A stretch of DNA of 64,000 bases from Escherichia coli (GTDB taxonomy: Bacteria > Pseudomonadota > Gammaproteobacteria > Enterobacterales > Enterobacteriaceae): NCBI RefSeq assembly GCF_013122565.1, contig NZ_CP053258.1; one strand, written 5' to 3'. This document shows, in pieces, positions 4,068-54,653 of the stretch (the stretch's first letter is position 1; each line of letters opens with the position of its first letter). Under the pieces are notes generated by a model. That model had not been told where the DNA came from, searched no databases, and saw only the letters and a program-made list of their open reading frames with translations. The translations under genes were made by a program, and so were the position numbers.

Positions 4068-4071
4068 TCGA

Positions 4072-4098
4072 TTAAGCACCTTTCACAAGGTGCTTAAT
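4072..4098. terminator. Bidirectional stem-loop between convergent yhaJ and the DUF805 gene
   Basis: Inverted repeat ttaagcacct / aggtgcttaa around a short loop, flanked by A/T-rich sequence. Confidence 0.5.
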
Positions 4099-4100
4099 TA

Positions 4101-4469
4101 TTATTCCTGTTCCAGTTTTGGATCAGGTCCAAAGCGGTTTTCGCCTGGCGTACCCGCCTGGCAGTTAAAGACGATGATAATAAGCCAGCCGATAAACGGG
4201 ATTAAGAACAGCAGTGCCCACCACGCCGAGCGGTCGGTGTCGTGCAGGCGGCGGAACTGAACCGCCCACCACGGTAAAAACACCAGAATACCGTAGATTG
4301 TCGTCAGGATGCCTTCGCCACCAGCGCGTTGCCAGCCTAACATTTTATCCAGCAGCCCCAACACGAACGTGAAGATGATGTTGACCAGAATAAACATCCA
4401 GTACTCTTTGCGCCGCGCACGACCCCGGAAACCGACATAATTTTTTAGTACTTTCAGATACCAGTCCAT
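4101..4469 (-). CDS. DUF805-family inner membrane protein (YhaH/YhaI type), ~122 aa
   Basis: ORF-track frame 4101..4490 begins at a TTG; ATG at 4469 has a GAGG ribosome-binding site 7 nt upstream and gives MDWYLKVLKNY...; two predicted transmembrane helices. Confidence 0.75.
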   Translation of the reverse strand: MDWYLKVLKNYVGFRGRARRKEYWMFILVNIIFTFVLGLLDKMLGWQRAGGEGILTTIYGILVFLPWWAVQFRRLHDTDRSAWWALLFLIPFIGWLIIIVFNCQAGTPGENRFGPDPKLEQE

Positions 4470-4660
4470 TTTTGCCTCAATTTTGCTCAATCACTTGTTT
4501 TTAAAGCAGCAAATTAAGAATAGACGTGAATGAAATGGCAGTAAATATTCGCTCAATGAATTAATAAGGTGCTGTGAAGGATAAGGGCAAGCGCAAAATT
4601 GCCAGAAGCGCTACGTTTATCTGGTCTGCGCGGTCATGGCAACATATTGAATATAAATGT

Positions 4661-6564: not shown

Positions 6565-6864
6565 TTAACCGCGAAGCTGTTGCTGCTTGAGGGTCGTTTT
6601 CACCAGACGCCAGGCGCTCCATACGCCAAAACCGCGTCTGGCCCAGCGGACCAGCATATTAGGATGGCGAATCGTCCAGATCGCCATCACACTACTGCCA
6701 ACCAGCGCCCAGGAGCGCAGACTTAGCAGCATATTCCAGCGACGATCGTAAGCGCCTGTTGCCTCCAGCCATTCACGACGACTGGCAGAAAGATCCAGCC
6801 GTTGTTGCTGGATCTGGCTAAGCAGTTGCGCCTTACGTCGTTCACGTTCGACTTTACTGCTCAC
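6565..6864 (-). CDS. yqjK: Small membrane protein YqjK, 99 aa, GTG start
   Basis: GTG at 6864 preceded by GAGGAGG; product begins (V)SSKVERERRKAQLLSQ; overlaps the 3' end of yqjE by 11 nt. Confidence 0.75.
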   Translation of the reverse strand: MSSKVERERRKAQLLSQIQQQRLDLSASRREWLEATGAYDRRWNMLLSLRSWALVGSSVMAIWTIRHPNMLVRWARRGFGVWSAWRLVKTTLKQQQLRG

Positions 6865-7258
6865 GGGACTCCTCCTCGAGCAGCTGCCGATCGTTTGCCA
6901 GCTCATGGCGTGTATGGCGCAGCAAGGTGGATTTACGCGATTTACGTAGCGTCCAGATACCGCCAATCAGTGCCAGTAGCAGCAACACCACGGTGGTGGC
7001 AATCATCGCATTCAGGCGATATTGCGGATCAACCGCCCAAATAATTAGCACCATCAGGCTCATAAGACCAAATGCAGCGAAAAGCATCGTCAGGCCCAGC
7101 ATCAGTAAAAGTTGAAAGAGATTAGCTTTTTCCTCTTCCAGCTCCACCACCGCCAGCCGCAGACGTGTTTCCACCATTTCAACCATGATGGAAACAATTC
7201 GCTGCCCGATGCCCAGAACGCTTTTACCGGGCCCTTGCGCGTGATGAGTGTCCGCCAT
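6854..7258 (-). CDS. yqjE: Inner membrane protein YqjE, 134 aa
   Basis: Start at MADTHHAQGPGK inside the 157-aa track ORF; synteny in the yqjCDEK cluster. Confidence 0.8.
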   Translation of the reverse strand: MADTHHAQGPGKSVLGIGQRIVSIMVEMVETRLRLAVVELEEEKANLFQLLLMLGLTMLFAAFGLMSLMVLIIWAVDPQYRLNAMIATTVVLLLLALIGGIWTLRKSRKSTLLRHTRHELANDRQLLEEESREQ

Positions 7259-9168: not shown

Positions 9169-9512
9169 TCATTATTCCTGGTGAATCGGTTAACGCCACG
9201 CTGGTTTTAAAAGATGCACTACCGCAATGTTATTGCTGTTTTGGTATGTTCTGCGGGTTTGATACATCAACACAGCCTGAACTATTCCCTGTTAAATCGT
9301 GAGATAAGAAAGCATTCAAAAGCATAAATTCAAATTGAATCTAATTGTAACAAAGGTCAACGTTGTTCGTTATCAAAATTACATGTCCGTGGAGTCTGAT
9401 TTTGCTGAATGCAGGGGAGGGTGGCGAGAGGATTTACACAGGCTGACACTTTATACTTTTCGCTTACCGACGAGACAAACAGGCGCATTGCAGCGCCTGT
9501 CGGACAGGAATT

Positions 9513-54047: not shown

Positions 54048-54653
54048 TTATTTGATGTAATGGACGTGCTCGCAGATCTCTTCCACGATGGGATCGCGGC
54101 GTTCGGCGAACAGCTTTTTGTTTTCGGCTATCAGGTTGTTTCCGTGGGTATCAATAGAGACAATCAGCGGACCGAACTCTTTGACCCGGCAGACCCACAG
54201 CGACTCCGGCATCCCGAGTTCTGTCCAGTGCACTTCTTCAATCTCTTCTACCTGGGTTGCCGCCAGCACCGCGCAGCCTGCCGGGAAAATCACATGTAGC
54301 GCCTTGAATTTCTGGCAGCCTTCTTCGGTCAGCGGCCCCATTCCGCCTTTGCCAACCACCAGTTTCACGCCGGTCTGCTCGATAAATTCACGTTCAAAAC
54401 TTTCCATACGCATACTGGTTGTCGGACCGACGGAAACCATCTCCCATTTGTCGCCGTTTTTGCGCACGATGGGGCCAGCGTGGAAAATCGCTTTGCCGTT
54501 GAGATCGTAAGGGATCGGACGTTTCAGTTCGATCAATCGGCGGTGACAAACGTCACGGCAGGTCACCAGCGTACCGGTCAGATAGATCACATCGCCGACG
54601 TGAATATCTTGCAGATCTTCAGCTTTGATCGGGGTTGTCAGGATTTTTTTCAT
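54048..54653 (-). CDS. ttdB: L(+)-tartrate dehydratase beta subunit, 201 aa
   Basis: 201-aa ORF; start overlaps the ttdA stop (ATGA); fumarate hydratase class I C-terminal-like. Confidence 0.9.

Follow-up and report, generated by a model that had tools for sequence, protein, structure and literature searches.

Among prokaryotes, about 15% of co-directional gene pairs overlap in most groups, according to a survey of 720 prokaryotic genomes (PMC6728339). When 14 overlapping gene pairs were tested, five of them from E. coli, 13 were found to be strictly coupled in translation (Huber et al. 2019; PMC6728339). The closest described counterpart of the locus considered here is the yqjE-yqjK pair of E. 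coli K-12 MG1655 (b3099/b3100), in the yqjCDEK operon, which shares with our sequence the GTG start of yqjK, the GAGGAGG ahead of it, the 11-nt overlap of the two genes and a YqjK of 99 aa. For PatA, the crystal structure uses a 459-residue numbering, and a helix of residues 10–22 contributes to the dimer (PMC4244111). Also described are the CfaA and CooB chaperones of the class 5 (CS1/CFA-I type) fimbriae, with which the fimbrial chaperone found here shares the PapD_N domain.

The stretch of DNA analysed, 64,000 nucleotides in length and referred to as the window, is Escherichia chromosomal DNA with an identity of 97.6–98.2% to complete E. coli genomes. It spans yhaK to glnE and is collinear with the corresponding region of K-12, in reverse orientation. 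There are two departures from this collinearity: exuR and exuT flank a four-gene fimbrial operon of the CS1 type, and yhaI is missing. In the equivalent K-12 region, 43 of the 46 coding sequences start with ATG, two with GTG (yqjK and yqiM) and one with TTG (patA), and overlaps are found in four of the 31 co-directional neighbour pairs (13%), three being of 4 nt and one of 11 nt. Start codon usage and overlap frequency in the region are in line with the published genome-wide values and there is nothing unusual about them.

An earlier note on the window singled out six features of this kind, comprising start codons of conserved genes and gene overlaps. All six are ordinary and, with the exception of the start of the fimbrial chaperone, are known from the reference annotation of E. 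coli K-12, with which PGAP annotation of other strains agrees for yqjK, patA, yhaH and ttdA/ttdB. They are very probably the ordinary translation-initiation features of conserved enterobacterial operons; their positions, conservation and annotation status are shown below, while the coupling and the codons that ribosomes use are inferred. The small gene yqiM (9190–9273, minus strand), which encodes 27 aa from a GTG at 9273 and is identical to K-12 b4787, is a third non-ATG start among the conserved genes and was not listed, nor were the ATGA stop/start overlap of ebgA and ebgC (36357–36360, minus strand) and a rival in-frame ATG for yqjK at 6906. In K-12, higB/higA also overlap as ATGA; a 20-nt exact match to the 5' end of K-12 higB was not found in the window.

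The yqjE/yqjK junction

The features of the junction are these:

6565–6864, minus strand: yqjK coding sequence, 99 aa from a GTG start, Pfam family YqjK (PF13997)

6854–7258, minus strand: yqjE coding sequence, 134 aa from an ATG start, Pfam PF07332; the K-12 annotation agrees

6854–6864, minus strand: yqjE/yqjK overlap of 11 nt, GTGAGCAGTAA, from GTG 6864–6862 to TAA 6856–6854; the same overlap is annotated in SMS-3-5 and K-12 MG1655

6871–6877, minus strand: GAGGAGG, Shine-Dalgarno site of yqjK, inside Glu codons of the yqjE 3' end

6904–6906, minus strand: rival ATG in the yqjK frame, 14 codons ahead of the GTG; it would yield 113 aa and was rejected as the start

Across the junction the minus strand reads ...CTCGAGGAGGAGTCCCGTGAGCAGTAAAGTC... 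The 3' end of yqjE is GAG GAG GAG TCC CGT GAG CAG TAA and the 5' end of yqjK is GTG AGC AGT AAA, the GTG being placed 8 nt ahead of the yqjE stop codon. Between this GTG and the GGAGG core of the Shine-Dalgarno site (6875–6871) there is a spacer of 6 nt. At its own 5' end, yqjE begins with an ATG 2 nt past the yqjD stop (TAATTATG), and the YqjE N-terminal peptide MADTHHAQGPGKSVLGIGQR in the TRAINSPOTTER N-terminomics table (PMC13245402) matches the window translation. Start-site data for yqjK, patA, yhaH and ttdB were found in none of the supplements of TRAINSPOTTER (PMC13245402), INRI-seq (PMC9825163) and Salmonella riboproteogenomics (PMC11005335), the search of which yielded only the N-termini of YqjD and YqjE. 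The starts of yqjK, patA, yhaH and the fimbrial chaperone are supported by comparison and by annotation.

The 99-aa product of the GTG form is a member of PF13997, scoring 88.3 bits against a gathering cut-off of 28.1 (E = 4.5e-25), with positions 1–73 of the profile aligned to residues 14–86. As the profile begins at residue 14, the next ATG, at residue 45, was ruled out as a start. In the other direction the frame is open as far as TTG 6966, and the single other plausible start within it is ATG 6906.

Is GTG 6864 the start of yqjK? Or, is the gene translated from ATG 6906 in strains like that of the window, giving a protein of 113 aa in which GTG 6864 is merely an internal valine codon? As a start codon ATG is intrinsically stronger than GTG, the frame between the two codons is open in the window and in SMS-3-5, and the exact 113-aa YqjK has been annotated on 12 contigs (e.g. 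ABJ02606.1). Yet the same DNA is recorded with the 99-aa form on at least 1000 contigs, and ATG 6906 is without a Shine-Dalgarno site. The 14 additional codons are open solely through a synonymous change in yqjE from TTA to CTG, which is the single difference between the window and K-12 in the 40 nt before and the 24 nt after the GTG. Where the window has TGG in the yqjK frame (CTG for Leu in yqjE, not TTA), leaving the upstream ATG open, the K-12 frame is closed by a TAG, 12 codons ahead of the yqjK GTG and two codons past the rival ATG. There is likewise an in-frame stop at codon -12 in locus L004. Locus L012 does not have the rival ATG at all, and E. albertii has GTG at that position and ATG at the conserved start.

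The set assembled for the yqjK junction consisted of loci from 80 Enterobacteriaceae species and the window, giving 81. The codon homologous to the window GTG is the start codon in every one of them (GTG in 52, ATG in 26 and TTG in 3), and GGAG, GAGG or AGGA is present within 20 nt upstream of it in 77. An in-frame stop is found no more than 3 codons upstream in 55 of the 81 loci, against the 113-aa form, and no more than 12 codons upstream in 63. Over the first 13 codons after the start, entropy at the three codon positions of the yqjK frame is 0.52/0.54/1.14, a coding pattern, versus 1.48/1.13/0.95 upstream. The third-position wobble pattern thus begins at the start codon, which supports the GTG. 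Residues S2, E6, R10, K11 and A12 of YqjK are invariant in 18 aligned homologues.

This comparison of related sequences supports GTG 6864 as the genuine start of yqjK, and the reference site would then hold in this divergent Escherichia sequence. The earlier note had placed the start of yqjK at a GTG that overlaps the 3' end of yqjE and has a GAGGAGG site, and this is borne out by the sequence, by the K-12 annotation and by the 81 loci. We consider translation from ATG 6906 alone to be extremely unlikely, and the 113-aa records of YqjK are unsupported by cross-species comparison.

Evolution of the junction and probable translational coupling

Across the 81 loci the start of yqjK is fixed and the stop of yqjE moves. 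The genes overlap by 4 nt (GTGA, ATGA or TTGA) in 48 loci, by 1 nt in 12, by 11 nt in 11 and by 8 nt in 6, and in four (L026, L059, L072 and L077) the yqjE stop is 2 nt ahead of the start codon. The 11-nt class is made up of Escherichia and some Citrobacter. None of the 81 loci has a junction outside the range of -11 to +2 nt, and the frame of one gene relative to the other varies among the classes. That the junction is tight despite the moving yqjE stop and the frame changes is the pattern expected from selection for coupling. Programmed frameshifting to a YqjE-YqjK fusion is implausible: the relative frame of yqjK differs among genera, and its difference between junction classes argues against such a mechanism.

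We infer that translational coupling by termination-reinitiation is the most likely mechanism at yqjE/yqjK. A ribosome would end translation of yqjE at TAA 6856–6854 and remain on the mRNA, where the nearby Shine-Dalgarno site would capture it and re-initiation would follow at the GTG a few nt back. Alternatively, the ribosome on yqjE might only unwind local structure, with a new 30S subunit binding. By either route the yqjCDEK mRNA would yield coordinated amounts of YqjE and YqjK, which are small inner-membrane proteins. The same mode may operate at the ATGA junctions of ttdA/ttdB, whose products are subunits of one enzyme, and of the fimbrial usher and adhesin genes. All three pairs combine a stop/start overlap, of 11 nt in yqjE/yqjK and of 4 nt in each of the others, with a Shine-Dalgarno site inside the upstream gene.

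It is also conceivable that yqjK is initiated independently of yqjE, through de novo binding at GGAGG and possibly on a separate intra-operon transcript, in which case the overlap would reflect genome compaction. The Shine-Dalgarno site of yqjK is strong and well spaced, and global transcription-start mapping has placed predicted start sites ahead of both yqjE and yqjK (PMC10746276). Additionally, how much the Shine-Dalgarno site contributes to coupling differs widely among genes (PMC6728339). However, independent initiation sits poorly with a junction that stays within its narrow range in every locus although the yqjE stop and the relative frame shift, and also with the strict coupling of nearly all of the overlapping pairs tested by Huber et al. 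(PMC6728339). On balance independent initiation is possible but rather unlikely, and termination-reinitiation is preferred.

A hairpin is predicted at 6835–6885 on the minus strand, in which GCUGCUCG is paired with UGAGCAGU together with two G-C pairs. It partly covers the Shine-Dalgarno site and the GTG of yqjK and has a z of -2.16 versus shuffled sequences. Its pairing is possible in approximately 75% of cells across the 81 species, which is explained by conserved columns. RNAalifold predicted no consensus RNA structure at the junction from the 81 sequences, and pair counting over the same 81 found no covariation for the hairpin helix above that of shuffled controls. The hairpin was rejected as a conserved element on these two results, and, as it shows no covariation, the structure-opening version of coupling is left without specific support. 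A proposal in which, in lineages where the yqjE change has removed the TAG of K-12, some ribosomes start at ATG 6906, giving a strain-specific, N-terminally extended YqjK of 113 aa beside the 99-aa form, and in which, separately, the predicted hairpin over the Shine-Dalgarno site and GTG makes translation of yqjK strictly dependent on yqjE, is in our view very unlikely.

The yqjE-yqjK junction, kept tight across the Enterobacteriaceae, fits the co-production of two small membrane proteins from the stress-induced yqjCDEK operon.

The TTG start of patA

41209–42588, minus strand: patA (ygjG) coding sequence, 459 aa, with TTG 42588–42586 and GGAG at 42598–42595, 6-nt spacer

The longest open reading frame of patA runs from ATG 42699 and would encode 496 aa. 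A TTG start is annotated in K-12 (NP_417544.5) and by PGAP, and the context of the start in the window is identical to that of K-12. Klebsiella, Salmonella and Citrobacter koseri all retain the TTG and the GGAG 6 nt ahead of it, and in the first two a TAA at codon -19, in frame, excludes the upstream ATG. Variable sites are distributed over the three codon positions as 2/2/18 in the 120 nt after the TTG versus 2/5/4 in the 27 nt before it. The third-position substitution pattern thus starts at the TTG, which indicates that coding constraint begins there. The translations of the first 40 codons after the TTG are identical in the window and K-12. The start of patA has reportedly been established experimentally by Samsonova et al. 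in 2003. The product is a class III aminotransferase with the 459-aa N-terminus (Aminotran_3, PF00202, E = 5e-102).

There is also a GTG nine codons upstream of the TTG that is conserved in all five sequences compared (the window, K-12, Klebsiella, Salmonella and C. koseri). The only grounds for excluding it are that it has no Shine-Dalgarno site and that substitutions between it and the TTG follow a non-coding pattern.

The patA TTG, like the yqjK GTG, is supported by these comparisons as a genuine and conserved, weaker start codon. A TTG start had been proposed for patA in the earlier note, and the K-12 and PGAP annotations and the conservation of TTG and GGAG in three genera agree with it.

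Upstream of patA, TGGCGCAATCCCTGCA or a sequence close to it is found in K-12, Klebsiella and C. koseri, and at this place (42625–42650, minus strand) the window reads TGCCGCAATCCCTGCA. The former resembles a sigma-54 promoter (-24 GG, -12 GC). In the window the putative -24 GG has become GC, which might weaken the promoter; Salmonella likewise does not have the GG.

yhaH and ttdA/ttdB

4101–4469, minus strand: yhaH (DUF805) coding sequence, 122 aa, with ATG 4469–4467 and GAGG at 4478–4475

54650–54653, minus strand: ATGA, ttdA stop/ttdB start, with GGAG 6 nt upstream of the ttdB ATG; the same in the K-12 and PapRG-04-4 annotation

All 39 loci examined have ATG as the homologous start of yhaH, preceded by a GAGG-type site; in most of them an in-frame stop is found 2–8 codons upstream, and yhaH of K-12 is annotated at the same ATG. 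The TTG at 4490, in frame and seven codons ahead of the ATG, was rejected as a start, having no Shine-Dalgarno site and being present at codon -7 in only four of the 39 loci. The choice of the ATG over this TTG for the DUF805 gene, as made from the window alone, is upheld by the 39 loci and by the K-12 annotation. The ATGA overlaps that had been described for ttdA/ttdB and for the fimbrial usher and adhesin genes are present in the sequence and are the same in all of the records examined.

The second DUF805 gene of K-12 and SMS-3-5, yhaI, is absent from the window at 4068–4100. From the yhaJ stop to the yhaH stop there are only 33 nt in the window versus 648 nt in K-12, and this 33-nt spacer holds an inverted repeat, AAGCACCTT...AAGGTGCTT.

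The fimbrial operon and the start of its chaperone

10584–11285, plus strand: coding sequence of a CS1-type (CooB/CfaA-like) fimbrial chaperone, 233 aa from GTG 10584, with a predicted signal peptide of residues 1–22 or 23

14595–14598, plus strand: ATGA, usher stop (TGA)/tip-adhesin start, with GGAGG 7 nt upstream; the same in SMS-3-5 and in L089–L092

The CS1/CFA-I-type operon lies within 10300–15700 on the plus strand, between exuR and exuT, as in SMS-3-5, and is absent from K-12. Between 10584 and 15689 the Pfam domains of a class 5 operon are found in order: PF00345, then PF04449, then PF17271 with PF16967 and PF15976, then PF07434; of these PF15976 (CooC_C), at 27.1 bits, is slightly below its 29-bit cut-off. 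PGAP gives the fimbrial genes the same names in SMS-3-5.

The 5' part of the operon is approximately 80–85% identical to alleles in complete E. coli genomes. The exact 364-aa tip adhesin is present in public records, and the adhesin falls in a 90%-identity cluster that is represented by the adhesin of Escherichia sp. E4742, a clustering that may be the outcome of recombination with a cryptic lineage of Escherichia. For the major subunit, the longest open reading frame (11285–11812, plus strand) opens with ATG 11285, which overlaps the chaperone stop as TAATG, and probably starts too early; the exact protein in public records has 166 aa from ATG 11312, with AAGGA upstream. The longest open reading frame of the usher (11896–14598, plus strand) also has an ATG, at 11896, that is probably too early, the usher of related loci having 894 aa, equivalent to a start at ATG 11914.

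GTG 10584 is the first canonical start past the in-frame TAA at 10542–10544 and has no convincing Shine-Dalgarno site. Judged by eye, residues 1–23 of the chaperone from this GTG (MKCIKVPFILACILFFWSIPGQA, followed by NMTVYP) resemble a signal peptide in their arrangement of basic, hydrophobic and small residues. Three CfaA structures, 4ncd, 4y2o and 6k73, are homologous to the chaperone (E about 1e-30). The mature N-terminus is aligned at ANMTVYP, and the alignment of the mature CfaA chains 4y2o_A and 6k73_A starts at residue 23 of the GTG form. The GTG is invariant in six of six alleles, which are fairly similar to one another, whereas codon 4, an ATA in the window, is TTA in L092.

The exact chaperone is present in public records in other forms: with 209 aa from ATG 10656 (QJU26898.1, WP_171460323.1), which has no signal peptide, and with 230 aa from ATA 10593 (WP_350502066.1). 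The public protein collection searched did not contain the exact GTG form of 233 aa, and for related alleles internal ATGs have been taken as starts, giving 212 or 218 aa. Does the chaperone start at the ATA or at the ATG of these records and not at the GTG? Both are starts in existing records of the exact protein, the GTG is without a clear Shine-Dalgarno site, and the ATA form would keep most of the signal peptide. The 209-aa form, however, opens with MTVYP, one residue into a mature protein whose N-terminus is NMTVYP, and has no signal peptide at all. The mature CfaA chains align with the GTG form from its residue 23 onwards, and the alleles with an ATG start have a signal peptide of 25 residues that ends at the same NMTVYP. 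As for the ATA, it has been replaced in L092 by TTA, no start codon, and the GTG is found in all six alleles. We know of no established native ATA start codon in E. coli. Either of the recorded starts is unlikely.

The chaperone should probably start at GTG 10584, which would supply the secretion signal, and this is the sole item that goes beyond existing annotation. The public records found have probably mis-annotated this chaperone allele recurrently, with the start set too far downstream. The GTG named for the chaperone in the earlier note finds support in its invariance in six alleles and in the alignment of the mature CfaA chains from residue 23. The accompanying remark that automated annotation often errs at such starts has proved right twice, for the 113-aa yqjK on 12 contigs and for the chaperone at 209 or 230 aa.

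Comparison with known systems

These start codons and overlaps have little biological consequence, the reference starts of yqjK, patA, yhaH and ttdB holding in a divergent Escherichia sequence. Their practical value is for annotation, where records of the chaperone either lack the signal peptide (lengths of 209, 212 or 218 aa) or start at an ATA (230 aa).

In operon order the fimbrial genes are as in class 5 fimbriae, with chaperone, major subunit, usher and tip adhesin. The window chaperone allele shares approximately 80–85% identity with those of complete E. coli genomes; unlike the common E. coli alleles, to which its signal-peptide region is unrelated, it has a GTG start where they have ATG. 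Compared with other E. coli genes that start with GTG or TTG, patA and yqjK are alike in having a canonical GGAG or GGAGG 6 nt upstream, and there is nothing distinctive about them, nor any hint of autoregulation through the start codon as in infC (AUU).

The overlapping pairs of the window resemble the coupled pairs of Huber et al. (2019; PMC6728339), which include ATGA and TGATG junctions, in being co-directional, with stop and start overlapping or almost in contact and a Shine-Dalgarno site inside the upstream gene. The partners in the window are subunits of one enzyme (TtdA/TtdB) or membrane proteins predicted to interact (YqjE/YqjK). In contrast to the common overlaps of 4 or 1 nt, and to the 4-nt GTGA or ATGA of most other genera, the yqjE/yqjK overlap of Escherichia is 11 nt, and the pair is a candidate for coupling of the kind described.
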